IMG/VR virus record: IMGVR_UViG_3300028887_000099
Span: 1-64,000 of that record
Length of the DNA: 64,000 nucleotides
Origin: a virus
Lineage: Duplodnaviria; Caudoviricetes
Direction: 5' to 3' (one strand)
Shown: one piece after another, positions 4,674 to 20,794 of the stretch
Layout: the number at the start of each line of letters is the position of its first letter
Position numbering within the stretch: the first letter of the stretch is position 1
Position numbers and translations under genes: made by a program
The notes under the pieces: generated by a model
What the model saw: only the letters and a program-made list of their open reading frames with translations
Database searches by the model: none
Told to the model about the DNA's origin: nothing

Positions 4674-4904
4674 ATGAAGCGTTTGATTTTAATTGCAATT
4701 TTTGATGATAAGAAAAACGTAGTAAGATTTCGTTCTGCCCCTGATTCAAAAATTGCATTACAAATACTTACAAACGCACGTGAGCAAGGATTTTTAACAG
4801 TAGCGGGTACTATTACATATGAAAATTCATATGACCGCGCGCGGGCACAACTTAAGTATCGACTTAAGCAAAAACTTTTAGAGAAAATGCGTGCTAAAAT
4901 TTGA
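4674..4904 (+). CDS. Hypothetical protein
   Basis: Behind a promoter and GGAGG RBS; 76 aa. Confidence 0.6.
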   Translation: MKRLILIAIFDDKKNVVRFRSAPDSKIALQILTNAREQGFLTVAGTITYENSYDRARAQLKYRLKQKLLEKMRAKI

Positions 4905-5040
4905 AATTTTTAAAAAAATATGATATAATTATTATAGAAAGTAAGGGAAGATTAAATTCTTTTATTTTTTATAATTTGAGGTTGATGGGAGGTCTACCTT
5001 TCTACCTCCCATTAGCTTACTATGGAAAGGGGAACAACTC

Positions 5041-5313
5041 ATGAGTGGTATTTACATCACCGGCATTGAGATGCCGACAAACAGCGAGCTTTTATGCATT
5101 AACATCTATCCGGATGGCAAAGTGTGTATTGACCTCGATTTGCATTGTCAACAGGTCGCAACAGCCATCCCCGTCCCTCCGCATGGACGGACGATAGACG
5201 CGGATGCGCTTTTACTAAGAGCAATTCCACTCGGCTGGTCTACTCCTAAATGGGTTAGCGACATTATGATTGATGATGCGCCAACCATCATCCCAGCGAG
5301 TAAGGAGTACTGA
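5041..5313 (+). CDS. Hypothetical protein
   Basis: RBS; 90 aa, higher GC than its neighbours. Confidence 0.6.
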   Translation: MSGIYITGIEMPTNSELLCINIYPDGKVCIDLDLHCQQVATAIPVPPHGRTIDADALLLRAIPLGWSTPKWVSDIMIDDAPTIIPASKEY

Positions 5314-5315
5314 AA

Positions 5316-5498
5316 ATGGAGTGGAATGATGGGATTCCTCAGTTCAGTTATTTCCCGGAATGGGTGGACACAGAATTCGAATGCCCGTATTGCGGCGGAG
5401 TGATGCAGAAGAATTAGATGAAGGTACTGACCTCGAATCCACCGAAGTACGAATACCGCTGTAAAGAGTGTAAGAGAATTCGATACAGGTTTCAGTAA
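5316..5498 (+). CDS. Small zinc-ribbon protein, code 15
   Basis: CPYC and CKEC pairs are joined only if TAG 5415-5417 is read as sense; 60 aa. Confidence 0.7.
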
Positions 5499-5499
5499 G

Positions 5500-6100
5500 G
5501 AGACGATTTGGTGTGAGAAGGCAGATAATGAAACAGCTTTCTTCCTCCCACCCTTTCTGATGTAACCCCACTAAAACCGTAGTGCAAGTCGGTAAATTCA
5601 GCAGGTAATGGACTGAGAGAGAAGCTAAGGCGAAGGACTCCAGCGACGCAAGCTGTGAAGGGTGAGCACATCGTATAGTGAGACGAGAGGTAACGTGAAC
5701 CACTCATACAATCGCGCGCCGTAAGTTGGCGGCCGGGTAGATTAAGCCCGATAATAACAAAGCCTATAGGGAGTCATGACCCTTAGAAGCAATAGCCAGA
5801 TAACAAAAAGGGGTCTGTGCAAAGATGCGATTCTATACACCAGTGAAATTGGGGACTGGTAAAAATATCACCCAATCGTTTCGGAAAACTTCACCGAGTT
5901 TCGTAAACTTAAAAAGAAGTAAAATATCGAAATAATCGAAACGGTAGAACGTAGAGTAATCGTCCATAAGCTCTCGCACACCTTAGCTAAGTGTGGAATA
6001 GTGGTGCAGGGGCGTCCCACTCGCCGCAGTAGAAAGTAGATATTGCGCTTTGGCGCGTCGTGAACGGGTGCGCGACATAAAATAAAGAAACCCGTTTTTA
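5500..6100 (+). ncRNA. Candidate large structured ncRNA
   Basis: No plausible ORF; 5500-5513 pairs with 5869-5882 (13/14); multiple GC hairpins; precedes the tRNA array. Confidence 0.5.
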
Positions 6101-6101
6101 T

Positions 6102-6452: not shown

Positions 6453-6995
6453 ATGTTTTCACTATAGACACTTTGTAATGCAATAGTTTTAGTTGGAGCA
6501 GTAATTATTGCAATTAAAAATATATATCATTTCTTCAAAAAACCTGTTACAGATTTATAGGAAAAAGCTAATACTAAAGAAGAAAAACATATTGAAGAAA
6601 TTATATAGAAAAAGGTACCTGAACTTTTAATTCAACATGGTCAAAATGTTGCTGAGTCACGTCGACTTGAAGATTAGAAACGTGATGCAGCAATAAAATC
6701 ATCTATTATAGATGCGATAGATATTAAAATTAATGAATTAAAGATGTTAAATAATGATATATAGTCTTCTTTAAAAGCTTTAAATATGGCTTAGTTAAAT
6801 ACTATGCGTTATAATTTGGATAGTATTTATACGAAATATTTCCCTTATAAAAAAATTACAGCCATAGATAAATAGGCATTTATTAAAATGTATGAAGATT
6901 ATAAAACTATGGGTGGAAATACCTGGGTAGATACTCTTTATAATGAATTAATTAATTGGGAAACCATCCAAGTTGAAGAAGATTTACATAATTAA
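6453..6995 (+). CDS. Membrane-anchored coiled-coil protein (possibly lysis-associated), code 15
   Basis: 180 aa with 7 in-frame TAGs; N-terminal TM; C-terminal YKTMGGNTWVDTLYNE motif. Confidence 0.6.
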
Positions 6996-7057
6996 ATTTT
7001 GACTTTTCATAAAATTTATGATATAATATATATAGAAAATGAGAAAGGGGTATAAAA

Positions 7058-7285
7058 ATGAAAACCTTTGATGATTTTGATACTCAGATTCAGAGCGATG
7101 AAATTATCCCCGAAGAGTATGAGGATTGGCTTCAGAGTATCGGTGTAACTCTTGAGGAGTTTGAAGCTGATATGGAAGCACAAGACAAGCTTCTGGATTG
7201 GATTTTCTCTCCTTGGCAGACTTATGAAGTAGATTGCGACGATGGAACTTATGGCGACGTAATCTATGAGTATGTTGGTGTTTAA
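7058..7285 (+). CDS. Small acidic hypothetical protein
   Basis: Own promoter (6999) and RBS; 75 aa. Confidence 0.7.
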   Translation: MKTFDDFDTQIQSDEIIPEEYEDWLQSIGVTLEEFEADMEAQDKLLDWIFSPWQTYEVDCDDGTYGDVIYEYVGV

Positions 7286-7288
7286 TTT

Positions 7289-7363
7289 GGTGCTTTCGTC
7301 TAATGGCGAGGACGCGAGATTCTCAATCTCGTAATACGGGTTCAAATCCCGTAAGCATCACCA
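7289..7363 (+). tRNA. tRNA-Glu(CTC)
   Basis: Cloverleaf, loop TTCTCAA, CCA. Confidence 0.95.
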
Positions 7364-8277
7364 GCCGTACCTTTAGTCTTTTGAGTTCGTTAACGAGGAG
7401 AAAAGACAGCGAGATTTGAGGATGAAAATCGCTAAACAATAACCCTTGGTGGAGTAGAAAGCCGGCCACGATAAATATTGGGGCGAGCAGTTGGCGAACT
7501 GTGAAAGAAAAACGCTTGGCAAAAGGGAACGAGAAGGAACGCTCAATCCTGCCTAATCCTGGTGAAGTAGGGATGAAAAACAACAACTTCACGTCAGTGA
7601 TACGTAAACCACACCGAGGGCGTGCGGGGTTAAAAAGAGACGCCAGCATTGGTGAACGCTTGAGATTTCACCATCATATAAGTGTTAGGCTTGCCGCCGT
7701 GACGCACTATAAAATGTCAAAACAAGCGGATTTGCCAGTTCCGTCCTCTGCACAGGATGGTGAGTAGTGTGCAGACTACAAAAGGTTTATGCGTCCACCA
7801 TAGTATGACGTACGGACAGCTCGCCCGTTGAGGAGCAAAGACAGAGGAGTAGGGATCGGGCTTCTGCGCCAGAACACGATGGCAAGTGGGAAGGTTTAAT
7901 GTCCTCGGGGTATAGTACGAGCCTCTTGATTTATCGTACTCGGCGGGGCGCGGCGCCGTAGTAAAAACGCGTTAATGGTCACGTAGGGAATCTCCTCGTG
8001 GTGTGACTGGACGGACAGTAGTATGCGATTACTGAGCCGAGAACAAACTCCCAGATAGTTTCAATCTAATATCGCATAGGATTGGAGCGTTGCTTACAGG
8101 AAGCCACCCTGTCAGGTTGAGATACCTGATACATACAGTACCTCGGAAGCGCAAAAATTTCGGCTATAAAAGACTAAGAGAGGGAGCCGTGGAAAAGCAA
8201 CAACTATCGACCGCGGTCTGGGTAGCGGAATAAAAAAGAACTTAAAGGGGCTGGCACGGCACCCAACCGCCGAGCCA
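7364..8277 (+). ncRNA. Candidate giant (~900 nt) ornate ncRNA
   Basis: Nested long-range helices 7364-71/8253-60, 7373-82/8168-77, 7460-64/8161-65, 7538-50/8078-91; GC-rich, no credible ORF; lies between two tRNA-Glu genes. Confidence 0.7.
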
Positions 8278-8284
8278 TTTATAT

Positions 8285-8361
8285 GCTCCCATCGACTAAC
8301 AGGAAAAGGTCGGTAGCCCTTCAAGCTGCAAATACGGGTTCGAGTCCCGTTGGGAGTACCA
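8285..8361 (+). tRNA. tRNA-Glu(TTC)
   Basis: Cloverleaf, loop CTTTCAA-type with TTC, CCA. Confidence 0.9.
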
Positions 8362-8432
8362 GCAAGTTCTCGATGTATAAGACTTGAAATCGTATTAAAA
8401 GTTTAGCTAACCTTTAAGCTTTGGCTCTAAAT

Positions 8433-8509
8433 GGGCAAGTACCCCAATTGGAAGAGGGAATAGGCTCAAACCCTGTGAAGTGTGGGTTCGACTCCCACCT
8501 GGCCTACCA
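8433..8509 (+). tRNA. tRNA-Leu(CAA), short variable loop
   Basis: Cloverleaf, loop CTCAAAC, CCA. Confidence 0.9.
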
Positions 8510-8511
8510 AA

Positions 8512-8783
8512 CGTTTTTGTAAATTGGACGTTAATCAATTTACCGTGTGAGAGGATGGATTTTTAGGTTAAACTACCACTGGCACTCTCAACTTTGGCGT
8601 CCAAAGAGATATGCGAGTCAGAGTGATATGTGGCTTAGTCATTTGAAAACACGTTAAACAAAAACGAAAGTAAACCTAAGACTAGTTAGATGGAGTGATG
8701 CGAATGAAATATGTCCAAATCTCCAATGGCGAGGAAACGCCGATTGGCTAGTAGCAGACCTGGGTAAGTCTTTAAACTACCCA
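8512..8783 (+). ncRNA. Candidate ~270 nt pseudoknotted ncRNA
   Basis: Helices 8512-20/8658-66, 8524-30/8598-8604, 8548-53/8585-90; pseudoknots 8563-69/8673-79 and 8756-8783. Confidence 0.6.
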
Positions 8784-9591: not shown

Positions 9592-9660
9592 GAAATTTGA
9601 AACTTTCTAAAATTTATGTTATAATAATATTAGAAAGTTGAGGGAGACCTTTTTGAACTT

Positions 9661-10272
9661 TGAAAATATAAATAACTTATACCTCGGTGAAAATCTGGAT
9701 GCGATGTCTAGTCCGAGGCGCACCGAAAGTGCTCGGGTCTAACGAAACAAGGATACTTGTGGATAGACGACCGCATTTTTAACGTGAGTGAAAAAATGAA
9801 TTCCTGTTGGAAGAAAGTAAAGGTGTGGCGCAAAAGTTATCGCAAATAAAAGCAGCCGTGGACAGGCGAGAGCAATAGACAGCAAGCGTTAAAAGCGTAG
9901 CCGAATCCAAGTTAGGAGTTAGCGAGTGGTGTCGGACTTAAACCTTGGAAATACCACTAATCTCGTGTGCGGTGAAGCAGAGAAATCTGTGTATAACTGT
10001 CTACAGCGTCCGAGTAGCGGAAATCGCAGTGACTTACTGAACATATAGATATTCTTGAAGATTAAGGTCTTTGATTAACATCTTTTCTGAATATCCCGTG
10101 AAAGGTAGAGGTAATCATTCCTCTGATGGACTTGGTCAAGGGAGGTAACTCCCGACTGGGGTAAGAAGTGTATTGGGGACGCCTGGTATGCTCAGACTTA
10201 TCTCCCATGTGGCTGAATATGTTTGAAGATAACGGATGTAAGGCGAAGGCTTATATTTTATTTATATTTTCA
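9661..10272 (+). ncRNA. Large ~610 nt ncRNA, probably ROOL-like
   Basis: Own promoter 9597-9625; perfect 15-bp terminal helix 9661-75/10258-72; size and tRNA-array setting match ROOL; family assignment is from recall only. Confidence 0.65.
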
Positions 10273-10541: not shown

Positions 10542-10616
10542 TCCGGAGTAGCGCAAAGGAAGAGCGGCTGACTCTAAATCAGCAGGTTGAGATATCGTAA
10601 TTCTCCTCCGGTGCCA
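10542..10616 (+). tRNA. Amber suppressor tRNA (CTA), probably Gln
   Basis: Stem GCTGA/TCAGC, loop CTCTAAA (anticodon 10574-76), G73, T1:T72 mismatch, CCA. Confidence 0.92.
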
Positions 10617-18314: not shown

Positions 18315-18809
18315 TTGAAAGAAGTGAGATCAGTGATAAGTCCAACACATGGAGAAATAACTCTCCATAAAACAGCAATTCTAATTAAAAATTTTATAGA
18401 AGGTGACCCCGATGGTCAGTATGCAATTTATATCGGTTCTGATAGCCAAAACACATACTACACCAAAATGGTTACAGTAGTTGCAGTCCATAAGGTCGGG
18501 CATGGCGGTCAATACTTCTATGAAATTTCTAAGTATGACAAAATTAAAGATATTCGTACAAAACTTTATACAGAAACTCAACTTAGTCTTGAAATGACCG
18601 ATAGACTTTTTGAGGAATTTCATAAACTGGATTTTAATTATGATGCAGATAATATTGCGTTCTGTATTCATATTGATGCTGGCAACGGCGGTCCAAGTGG
18701 TCAAGTAATTCCTGAAGTAGTTGGTTATGTTCATGCTATGGGTTATGAATGCGAAGTAAAACCTTCATCACCAATAGCTAGTTGTATTGCTGACCGAATT
18801 AGTAAATAA
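18315..18809 (+). CDS. RNase H-like fold protein (YkuK/DUF458 family)
   Basis: IGSDSQ, VVAVHKVGHGG.YFY, TETQLSL, IHIDAG, KP.S.IAS.IADR. Confidence 0.75.
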   Translation: MKEVRSVISPTHGEITLHKTAILIKNFIEGDPDGQYAIYIGSDSQNTYYTKMVTVVAVHKVGHGGQYFYEISKYDKIKDIRTKLYTETQLSLEMTDRLFEEFHKLDFNYDADNIAFCIHIDAGNGGPSGQVIPEVVGYVHAMGYECEVKPSSPIASCIADRISK

Positions 18810-19208: not shown

Positions 19209-19261
19209 GTTCTTTATCTCGTTAGAGATAAATCATTTTGGAGAAAAAGGAGAAAACAACA

Positions 19262-20794
19262 ATGAGATATGTAAACGCTCTCGAAAACGAGTTTAACTAT
19301 AAGCGCACCGAAAATGGTGGCTTGGCGCATAAGTCTACTTGCGATGCGCTCTATGATATGTTTGCCCTTGGTGGCGCATATCGTAGTCGTAGCGATGAGG
19401 ACTGTGTCTTCCTTTTTATGAAGGCATTTAAGGAAAATCCTACTTATGCTATGAAGTGCCTCTTCTATCTGCGTGATATTTTGCAGGGACAGGGAGAGCG
19501 CCGCTTCTTCCGCGTCTGCATTAAGTGGGCAGCGGATAATTATTCCCTTGAGATGGATCGCAATCTCAAGCACATCCCTGAGTTTGGTCGTTGGGATGAC
19601 CTCTATGCCTTTGTTGGCACCAAGTTGGAAGCCTCTATGTGGGCTTTTATGTACGAGCAGTTTCGTTTGGATATGGGTTCTCGTACTCCTTCTCTACTCG
19701 GAAAGTGGCTCAAGTCTGAGAATACTTCCAGTGCAGAGTCTCGCGCCCTTGGCGCAAAGACTCGTAGAGCCTTTGGCATGACTCCCATGACCTATCGTAA
19801 GACTCTTTCCAGCCTTCGTAAGCGCATCAATGTTCTTGAGCGTCTTATGAGTGAGCGTCGTTGGGACGAGATTGAGTTCGATAAGATCCCCTCTAAGGCT
19901 GGTCTTGTCTATAAGAACGCTTTCGCACGCCATGATGTGGAGCGTATGAAGGCTAAGGCCATTCAGTCTTATGCCGACTTTGCGAAGGATAAGAACGCTA
20001 AGGTTAACATCAAGGCTCTTTATCCTTATGAGGTTGTGGAGAAGGCTATTAAGGTTCTTTGTGGTGGTAGTTACTACTACTCTTGGAGAACTGTGAATGT
20101 AGCCTTGGGCGATACTGATCGTCTTATGGTCAACAAATATTGGGAAAATCTGGCAGACTATATGTCTAAGCTGAATATGAACGCCCTTTGTGTTGTTGAC
20201 ACCAGCGGCTCTATGCATGGTACTCCTATCAACATTGCAATCTCTCTCGGTATGATTGCGGCTGATAAGGCACGTGGGCCATTTCATGGTCGTTATATCA
20301 GCTTCAGCTCTCGTCCTCAGCTTATCAAAGTAGAGGGTGTGGACTTCGTTGATAAGGTAAAGCGTATCTATGATACCAACCTTTGCGAAAATACTAACCT
20401 CGAGGCAACCTTTGATATGCTTTTGGATGTAGCTTGCCGAAATCACATGAAGCAGAAGGATCTGCCAAAGTCTATTATCGTCATTAGCGATATGGAAATT
20501 GACAATGCTTACGGGATGTATAGCTGGGACAGCAACAGCGAAAAAGCTCGTGCAAAGAACCGCACCATGATGGAGAATATGAGACTCAAGTGGAAGCGTT
20601 ATGGTTATGATCTTCCTAAGATGGTATATTGGAACGTGAGTGCACGTCATGATACCTTCCTGGACGATGGCCCTGACGTAACCTACGTAAGTGGTGCCAG
20701 CGCGATTCTCTTTGAGCAAGTCGCAAAGGGTATCACTGCGCAGGATCTCATGTTTGAGAAACTGGATAGCGAGCGTTATGCTTGCATCAGATAA
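19262..20794 (+). CDS. DUF2828-type Ro60/TROVE-like protein with C-terminal vWA domain
   Basis: RTENGG, LFYLRDI..GQGER, FGRWDDL, GKWL, vWA MIDAS VVDTSGSM, IIVISDMEID, YWNV; RBS AAGGAG; 510 aa, no TAG. Confidence 0.8.
   Translation: MRYVNALENEFNYKRTENGGLAHKSTCDALYDMFALGGAYRSRSDEDCVFLFMKAFKENPTYAMKCLFYLRDILQGQGERRFFRVCIKWAADNYSLEMDRNLKHIPEFGRWDDLYAFVGTKLEASMWAFMYEQFRLDMGSRTPSLLGKWLKSENTSSAESRALGAKTRRAFGMTPMTYRKTLSSLRKRINVLERLMSERRWDEIEFDKIPSKAGLVYKNAFARHDVERMKAKAIQSYADFAKDKNAKVNIKALYPYEVVEKAIKVLCGGSYYYSWRTVNVALGDTDRLMVNKYWENLADYMSKLNMNALCVVDTSGSMHGTPINIAISLGMIAADKARGPFHGRYISFSSRPQLIKVEGVDFVDKVKRIYDTNLCENTNLEATFDMLLDVACRNHMKQKDLPKSIIVISDMEIDNAYGMYSWDSNSEKARAKNRTMMENMRLKWKRYGYDLPKMVYWNVSARHDTFLDDGPDVTYVSGASAILFEQVAKGITAQDLMFEKLDSERYACIR

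Follow-up and report, generated by a model that had tools for sequence, protein, structure and literature searches.

A cassette of conserved RNA modules with a predicted HDV-like ribozyme between two tRNA-Glu genes of a recoded phage

Here, we describe a non-coding interval of 921 nucleotides (nt) between two transfer RNA (tRNA) genes for Glu in a Caudoviricetes virus, at positions 7364-8284 of a 64,000-nt window (positions 1 to 64,000 of IMG/VR record IMGVR_UViG_3300028887_000099; feature coordinates in Table 1). The interval belongs to an array of 37 tRNA genes called by ARAGORN, opens on the base after a tRNA CCA that ends at 7363, stops before the next tRNA at 8285, and has a G+C content of 49.1%, versus 35.8% for the window. 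It holds, in order, modules M1, M2 and M3, a multi-pseudoknot RNA (module B), a decayed tRNA-like piece, a hepatitis delta virus (HDV)-like ribozyme fold, and a conserved domain (D) with a short 3' tail. The folds of module B, the ribozyme and D are upheld by covariation, and these modules also occur apart from one another in related phages. We consider it probable that the interval is a cassette of RNA modules that fold on their own and are inherited separately, lies in a phage tRNA operon and is made as part of a precursor that the ribozyme would cut.

Read with translation table 11, the 921 nt contain only short, unsupported open reading frames (ORFs), none of them credible. A tRNA at 10542-10616 has a CUA anticodon (labeled Pyl by ARAGORN) and is an amber suppressor, consistent with TAG recoding; TAG was therefore also read as Gln in the ORF check. 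The resulting frame of 132 amino acids (aa) at 7501-7899 was rejected as a gene, as it has no Pfam or PHROG match and overlaps RNA with compensatory pairing. No Rfam family, GOLLD and ROOL included, matches any part of 7364-8284 at the gathering threshold or at E ≤ 10, and this holds for RNase P RNA, transfer-messenger RNA (tmRNA), group I/II introns and other small ribozymes; ARAGORN called no tmRNA. The GOLLD model (RF02032), which represents the conserved 3' region of that RNA in 416 positions with a cut-off of 150 bits, has no match at E ≤ 10 across the whole 85.9-kb record or in eight related loci, and the ROOL match (RF03087, 333.7 bits) lies outside the interval, at 9659-10271. Permissive Rfam searches of the eight relatives gave only tRNAs, ROOL elsewhere and two matches below threshold, YrlA in L002 and the CPEB3 ribozyme in L004. 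The region has no blastn match among 50,697 GenBank phage records, and no paralogue of the cassette was found elsewhere in the window, a second ORF-free block at 4930-6101 being unrelated in sequence. Minimum free energy (MFE) z-scores are uninformative (whole region -1.07, minus strand -1.78, sub-regions -0.38 for M3 and -0.91). A preliminary description of this DNA had placed the interval directly after the CCA and between the two tRNA-Glu genes, and had called it G+C-richer than the coding DNA, free of credible ORFs, and without recognizable signatures of GOLLD, RNase P RNA, tmRNA or introns; all of this is borne out.

Homologues came from about 30 related IMG/VR loci (L-numbered) gathered via the neighboring 75-aa ORF and two DNA patterns, and comparison of these revealed compensatory pairing in separate modules (module B, the ribozyme and D). 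By blastn and nhmmer, M1 (7364-7446) has similarity only to L026, L020 and L010, and M2 (7445-7514) only to L016, L006/L007 and L023. Module B (7729-7905) has matches in 19 other distinct loci, and D is found at 10 others, with 7977-8250 matching L026, L020 and L002 and partially L004, L008, L023, L029 and L030. The modules combine in different ways: L026 and L020 have M1 and the 3' RNA without M2 at this position, L006 has M1, M2 and B without D, and L004 has B and D without M1 or M2. Module B is alone in inter-tRNA gaps of 317 nt (L015/L028), 372 nt (L021) and 474 nt (L012), stands immediately 5' of a tRNA in L031 and L022, and frequently ends 10-50 nt ahead of one. Three tRNA genes separate module B (6624-6846) from ribozyme and D (8282-8500) in L008, where a promoter-like site (11/12) lies 12 nt upstream of the latter. 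As in the window, tRNA-Glu(UUC) is found 3' of D in L002, L004, L010, L020, L023, L026 and L029. This separate distribution decides against one integrated 900-nt fold.

RNAalifold on 17 distinct copies of module B gives six helices with compensatory change in 19 of 27 pairs. Across 19 distinct rows of a model-based alignment, 96.8% of cells pair, versus 36-43% with the partners slid, a level that none of 500 shuffles reaches, and model R3 scores the copy in the window at 128.9 bits. The pairing between loops a and b spans 6-8 base pairs (bp) in all 17 copies and is spelled in at least seven different words, among them CTGCAC/GTGCAG, TGCGGC/GCCGCA, TTGCCG/CGGCAA and GTTACAG/CTGTAAC. Two further contacts have less support: the 5' tail can pair with the loop of hairpin e, the last one (window TTGCCA/TGGCAA; other copies ATGCC/GGCAT), and in most copies the hairpin d loop pairs with the 3' tail. 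The single-stranded stretches GGACACCTCGCCCGTTGAGGAGGGAAG and CCAGAACATAAGGGCATATGGAATGG are nearly invariant, and each record carries one copy of the module. A pattern scan of bacterial genomes from 185,579 species gave one chance match, inside a response-regulator gene, and a scan of JGI metagenomes gave none; module B is therefore seen only in viral contigs with the tools used. A reading of module B as RNase P-like or glmS-like, from GAGGAGGGAAG and CCAGAAC, was rejected, the P4-type pairing being unsupported by covarying stems and Rfam silent.

The ribozyme fold was parsed from 11 copies and, in the window, runs GGTCAC-GTAGGGA-ATC-TCCTCGT-GGT-GTGACT-GG-(P4)-...-TCCC, the full HDV layout. 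Three features expected of an HDV-like ribozyme are present, namely a P1 that starts with G.U, the P3/L3/P1.1 arrangement and a P2 that makes the double pseudoknot. By structure the predicted ribozyme is of a known kind. P1 has eight different sequences among the 11 copies, with G.U at the predicted cleavage site in all, and P2 has nine (GAGA/TCTC in L026, AGGAA/TTCCT in L002). P3 occurs as ACC/GGT, GCC/GGC and ATC/GGT, P1.1 as CC/GG, TC/GA (L004) and GC/GC (L023, L030), and the base of P4 shifts from CGG/CCG to CAG/CTG; compensatory changes are thus found in P1, P1.1, P2, P3 and the P4 base. The orthologous copy in L004 scores 29.6 bits on the Rfam CPEB3_ribozyme model (E 6e-4, cut-off 35). 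Covariance model R1, built from five ribozyme copies, also finds ribozymes that start no more than one base from the 3' ends of tRNA-Met (L003) and tRNA-Arg (L008); these minimal HDV-like ribozymes (L003 9053-9107, L008 10875-10939) have the published theta-ribozyme arrangement. A ribozyme pattern scan of viral contigs found no more copies with the long P4 of the window; its only other matches form a clade of their own, of minimal and nearly identical HDV-like ribozymes on about 12 IMG/VR contigs (L041-L062, e.g. L043 6934 and L051 6892). Their sequence is GGTTGC ... TCCTCGT ... GCAACT GG ACTAAGAC TAA AAACAC, and each has a strong hairpin on its 5' side and a TTGACA/TATAAG promoter-like site on its 3' side.

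Theta ribozymes are tRNA-linked HDV-like ribozymes that were found in recoded gut Caudoviricetes and shown to cleave (Kienbeck et al., 2024; PMC10879173). The fold in the window is like them in its nested double pseudoknot P1/P1.1/P2/P3/P4, in the G.U at the cleavage site and the L3 loop TCCTCGT, in its setting in the tRNA array of a TAG-to-Gln recoded phage and, in the relatives, in its position directly after a tRNA-shaped element. It is unlike them in having a long P4 (28 nt) where theirs is minimal, in being preceded by a permuted or decayed tRNA look-alike instead of a true tRNA, in a junction J4/2 with an apparent 3-nt insertion ahead of the candidate catalytic C, and in its 3' fusion, without spacer, to a conserved domain of ~155 nt, placing it at the 5' end of another RNA.

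That domain, D, begins where the 3' strand of ribozyme P2 continues straight into helix P-I. In an alignment of nine copies, 96.8% of cells pair, versus 21-48% with the partners slid; none of 500 shuffles matches this, and compensatory change is seen in 5 pairs. P-II alone appears as GTTGC/GCAAC, GTTAC/GTAAC, GTACT/AGTAC, GTCAT/ATGAC, GACAC/GTGTC and GATAC/GTATC. D also holds the conserved strand GATACA..CAGTA.C, and model R2 finds a copy outside its training set in L009, right behind a ribozyme (48.8 bits). An HDV-like ribozyme heads 10 of 11 D copies, and the eleventh (L063) has no ribozyme and stands behind a promoter-like sequence (read by eye), a pattern that fits a ribozyme making the 5' end of D inside a longer transcript. 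Between CAGTA.C and H5, 9 of the 11 copies have a palindrome of at least 6 nt, versus 7.5% of other D windows. It is spelled in five words (TGCGCA/ATGCGCAT, GCGCGC, GGTACC, GCTAGC, GTGCAC); in the window and L026 the palindrome is only 4 nt. Palindromes that change yet stay palindromic have served as evidence for kissing loops between molecules of OLE and of GOLLD (10.1101/2024.12.08.627333), and by analogy D may, as a hypothesis, pair with itself. In the 3' tail, the stem is CCGC/GCGG in the window, L002 and L026 and CCGT/ACGG in L004, and the loop pairs downstream in L020 (TAGCGG/CCGCTA) and L026 (TGGGA/TCCCA); in the window, the loop TGGGT (8219-8223) may, weakly, form a pseudoknot with ACCCA (8261-8265). 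Following D in L008, positions ~8520-8560 resemble the 5' half of tRNA-Glu(UUC) (acceptor strand, D arm and anticodon stem), where ARAGORN makes no call.

In L026, L020 and L002 the sequence that leads into the ribozyme is a closed tRNA-like element, circularly permuted and with an evident T arm (GTGGGTTCGAACCCCGC); L003 likewise joins a permuted tRNA-like element to a ribozyme. Of this element the window retains an anticodon-arm-like hairpin, whose loop opens GCCTCTTG; the T arm is gone, as is most of the D-arm-like part. The closed element resembles YrlA, a bacterial Y RNA (RF02553), although that model reaches only 35.3 bits, in L002 only and below its cut-off of 69, and has no match in the window. 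Given the losses named above, the copy in the window is not a Y-RNA-like element. At the 5' end of the cassette, the second stem of M1 is, by inspection, AGTGA/TCACT in L020 and CCTGA/TCAGG in L027, and its loop GAGG (7418-7421) could pair with CCTT (7444-7447) as an H-type pseudoknot. An nhmmer search with M3 found no homologue; only 7608-7672 (65 nt) resembles L023, at 69%.

Table 1. Coordinates of the cassette, its modules and its flanking features
Feature	Position	Strand	Evidence or remark
Promoter-like site, TTGACT-17-TATAAT with TG	6999..7027	+	Likely transcript start for the 75-aa ORF, tRNA-Glu(CUC), cassette and downstream tRNAs
tRNA-Glu(CUC) with encoded CCA	7289..7363	+	5' cassette boundary; ARAGORN, Rfam tRNA 64.8 bits
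M1	7364..7447	+	Hairpins 7376-7382/7401-7407 and 7408-7412/7429-7433; 84-87% identical to L026, L020, L010
M2	7448..7514	+	Hairpins 7449-7452/7466-7469 and 7488-7492/7497-7501; identity 98% L016, 91% L006/L007, 83% L023
M3, variable linker	7515..7729	+	MFE z -0.38
Module B, ~180-nt multi-pseudoknot RNA	7730..7910	+	17-homologue alignment, RNAalifold, model R3
Module B stem a	7741-46/7755-60	+	
Module B loop a-loop b pairing	7748-53/7769-74	+	
Module B stem b	7765-68/7775-78	+	
Module B middle hairpin	7784-86/7797-99	+	Loop 7790-95 pairs with 7807-12
Module B hairpin c	7819-22/7833-36	+	Conserved loop GCCCGTTGAG
Module B hairpin d	7842-47/7861-66	+	
Module B hairpin e	7868-70/7893-95 and 7875-77/7886-88	+	Loop TGGCAA 7880-85 pairs with 5' tail TTGCCA 7732-37
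Decayed tRNA-like piece	7911..7976	+	Alignment with relatives; tail TTAAT ends at the predicted cleavage site
Anticodon-arm-like hairpin	7914-7920/7934-7940	+	Loop GCCTCTTGATTTA; in the tRNA-like piece
G+C-rich hairpin	7941-7945/7954-7958	+	In the tRNA-like piece
HDV-like ribozyme fold	7977..8053	+	Predicted cleavage 7976/7977; parse of 11 copies
Ribozyme P1	7977-82/8003-08	+	GGTCAC/GTGACT, first pair G1.U
Ribozyme P2	7986-89/8049-52	+	GGGA/TCCC; crosses P1 (double pseudoknot)
Ribozyme P3	7990-92/8000-02	+	ATC/GGT; closes 7-nt L3 TCCTCGT 7993-99
Ribozyme P1.1	C7994,C7995/G8009,G8010	+	
Ribozyme P4	8012-14/8037-39 and 8016-20/8031-35	+	28 nt
Candidate catalytic C	8044	+	In CAAA
Domain D, ~155 nt	8054..8208	+	Directly joined to ribozyme; alignment of 9 copies
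Domain D closing helices	P-I 8054-60/8202-08; P-II 8089-93/8197-8201	+	
Domain D inner helices	H1 8062-66/8080-84; H2 8096-8100/8108-12; H3 8113-17/8124-28; H5 8161-65/8185-89	+	
Self-complementary GCGC	8149..8152	+	Junction before H5; possible copy-copy pairing site
3' tail	8211..8268	+	Hairpin 8211-14/8225-28; by inspection of alignments
tRNA-Glu(UUC)	8285..8361	+	3' cassette boundary; ARAGORN, Rfam tRNA 50.4 bits

From the sequence we infer co-transcription, the processing sites, ribozyme activity and any role of the products as follows. The cassette would be transcribed together with its flanking tRNAs, probably from the site at 6999-7027. This one-precursor reading is favored because that site, upstream of the 75-aa ORF, is the sole strong promoter-like site near the cassette and no terminator-like site on the plus strand precedes the next tRNAs; inside 7364-8284 there is neither such a terminator-like site nor a promoter-like site of comparable quality. 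Processing of the 3' end after the CCA at 7363 would set the 5' boundary of the cassette, a cut by host RNase P at 8284/8285 would set the 3' end of the ribozyme-D RNA, and the internal ribozyme would cut itself at 7976/7977. The predicted products are a 5' RNA of ~613 nt with a 2',3'-cyclic phosphate end, made up of hairpin/pseudoknot modules, module B and a decayed tRNA-like tail, and an RNA of ~308 nt with a 5'-OH, made up of the ribozyme, then the closed domain D, then a small hairpin/pseudoknot. At least two stable structured RNAs would in this way be made alongside the phage tRNAs. The 75-aa ORF (7058-7285) is acidic, has no Pfam match, and is found ahead of the tRNA/RNA cassette in no fewer than eight related contigs; the ribozyme of L009 begins 18 nt past the stop codon of this ORF.

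Several points weigh against a ribozyme-cut cassette of separate modules. The alignments represent few independent lineages, all from similar IMG/VR samples. The order M1...B...tRNA-like...ribozyme-D is constant in six Glu-Glu gaps (845-1018 nt). A clade-specific long-range contact may exist, because the H5 loop and M1 are complementary over 12 bp (with G.U) in the window, 8 bp in L026 and 7 bp in L020, there at a shifted place and at chance level. The curated HDV-family models of Rfam (HDV_ribozyme, CPEB3, HDV-F-prausnitzii, drz) leave the copy in the window unmatched at E ≤ 10, a 111-nt search included. Finally, J4/2 reads P4-A-(G/T)-A-A-C-NAA-P2 in the window, L026, L020 and L002, and P4-(A/G)-C-NRA-P2 in all other copies. 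In the window the junction is P4-A-G-A-A-C8044-A-A-A-C-P2, and the base after the P4-closing A, a C in canonical copies, is G here and in L026 and L020, and T in L002. The catalytic C may thus have been replaced and the fold be inactive, as C-to-G, -U or -A changes at this base inactivate HDV-like ribozymes (PMC10879173). This, with the silence of the Rfam models, would suit an explanation that we regard as unlikely, in which the modules are real and the transcript is uncut, the inactive fold serving as a structural 5' domain of D within one beads-on-a-string RNA of ~920 nt. Against it, C8044, although 3 nt more distant from P4, precedes AAA or TAA and so restores the C-N-R-A of all other copies, and the substitution reading breaks the junction consensus at two positions. 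A 3-nt insertion before a retained candidate catalytic C8044 is favored because the C-N-R-A junction is then kept in all four copies. Within this clade, moreover, P1 with its G.U, P1.1 and P2 are kept by compensatory change, which is what a working ribozyme would show.

The preliminary description had read the interval as one RNA of ~900 nt joined by four nested long-range helices, possibly a new class. The helices are all in the sequence as described: 7364-71/8253-60 (7 of 8 paired, one A.C), 7373-82/8168-77 (a perfect 10 bp), 7460-64/8161-65 (5 bp) and 7538-50/8078-91 (13 bp, one bulge). They do not exceed chance, as a perfect long-range helix of at least 10 bp arises in 21% of shuffles of the region, and they are not kept in L020, L002 or L027; relatives that keep the 3' strands have the 5' partners altered, unpaired or missing. 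Helix 1 has its 5' strand kept in L026 and L020, where the 3' partner is changed or deleted. Helix 2 has lost its complementarity in L020 and L002; its 5' strand instead lies in the local hairpin 7376-82/7401-07 (CCACC/GGTGG in L002, CTTAC/GTAAG in L006) and its 3' strand is the H5 loop. The 3' strand of helix 3, CGGCT (8161-65), belongs to the invariant local helix H5. That of helix 4 spans hairpin H1 and helix P-II and is conserved in phages lacking the stretch, itself without homologue, that holds the 5' strand. An alignment of five sequences has the four helices 73% paired, which overstates the case because the window and two near-identical relatives are among the five. A single integrated giant RNA, a GOLLD-like new class with a variable 5' part, a tRNA-like linker insert, a conserved 3' part and long-range closure, is accordingly quite improbable. 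The constant module order, the presence of the four helices in the window and the H5-loop/M1 complementarity in three close relatives speak for it, as does the likeness to GOLLD, which also has a variable 5' part, a conserved 3' part and sometimes a linker tRNA (10.1101/2024.12.08.627333). Against it, besides the state of the helices, module B and D are each found without the rest and are split by tRNA genes and a promoter in L008, a self-cleaving fold sits mid-region, and the GOLLD model is empty. What stands of the original proposal is a non-coding, folded RNA locus, conserved in related phages and absent from Rfam; the single giant molecule does not stand. The interval is not GOLLD, ROOL, RNase P, tmRNA or an intron, and the HDV-like fold went unrecognized in that description. 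Farthest from our view is that the interval is mostly functionless spacer, in which decayed tRNA genes and mobile RNA elements are tolerated between tRNAs. The decay of 7911-7976 relative to its relatives, the lack of homologue or folding signal in M3, and the differing module content of close phages are what such spacer would show, but the pairings of module B, the ribozyme and D have outlasted many compensatory changes and their long single-stranded stretches are invariant, which indicates purifying selection on these RNAs and makes this reading very improbable.

Phage tRNA clusters have held small structured RNAs before: the species 1 and 2 RNAs of T4 are small, stable RNAs in a tRNA cluster that are co-transcribed and released by the tRNA-processing machinery. 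The modules described here are likewise non-tRNA structured RNAs within a phage tRNA cluster, and differ in being larger, with more pseudoknots and, in one case, a predicted release by ribozyme. With GOLLD (RF02032) and ROOL (RF03087) the cassette shares its place in a phage tRNA island, its many pseudoknots, and, in domain D, palindromes that vary yet stay palindromic (10.1101/2024.12.08.627333); it differs in having no sequence or structure match to either, and in consisting of pieces of ~180 nt and ~230-310 nt that are separately inherited. For module B and D, no Rfam 15 match and no describing paper were found, the catalogue of 10,006 viral candidate RNAs (PMC10690425) being outside this comparison. 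One joint reading, which we offer tentatively and with more doubt than conviction, is that ribozyme and D form a new phage RNA class and module B a second. The former would be an ornate RNA of ~230-310 nt in which the ribozyme acts as 5' end-maker or domain and copies dimerize through the palindrome, as in OLE, ROOL and GOLLD; in the latter, the invariant single-stranded core in a four-pseudoknot scaffold would mark a site of catalysis or high-affinity binding linked to tRNA biology.

A large G+C-rich, ORF-free block in a phage tRNA island may thus be something other than a giant of the GOLLD kind, such as a polycistronic RNA 'operon' with tRNAs and self-cleaving ribozymes between its units. 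Published HDV-like ribozymes of recoded phages trim tRNA 3' ends (PMC10879173), and those described here, in addition, stand at the start of a conserved non-tRNA RNA and behind tRNA look-alikes, which widens the known use of such ribozymes in recoded phages of gut and rumen. Some of the theta ribozymes reported as 'isolated', far from genes, may be accounted for by such an arrangement. Module B (~180 nt) and ribozyme with D (~230-310 nt, with a possible dimerization palindrome) are two compact, testable RNA families with clear boundaries and covariation-backed structures.

Other elements were noted in the same tRNA region. The full-length ROOL lies 1.4 kb downstream of the cassette in the same array, with a promoter-like site at 9597-9625, and in L002 a ROOL copy occupies the corresponding position. 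The ORF-free block at 4930-6101 is also G+C-rich, has a promoter-like site before it (4901-4929) and tRNA-Gly after it, and has no Rfam match; it is 77% identical to L002 over 5537-6098 and 84% identical to L026 over 5655-5845. Two protein-coding genes lie inside the tRNA region, encoding an RNaseH-like PF04308 protein (18315-18806) and a protein with DUF2828/DUF7788 Pfam hits (19238-20794).

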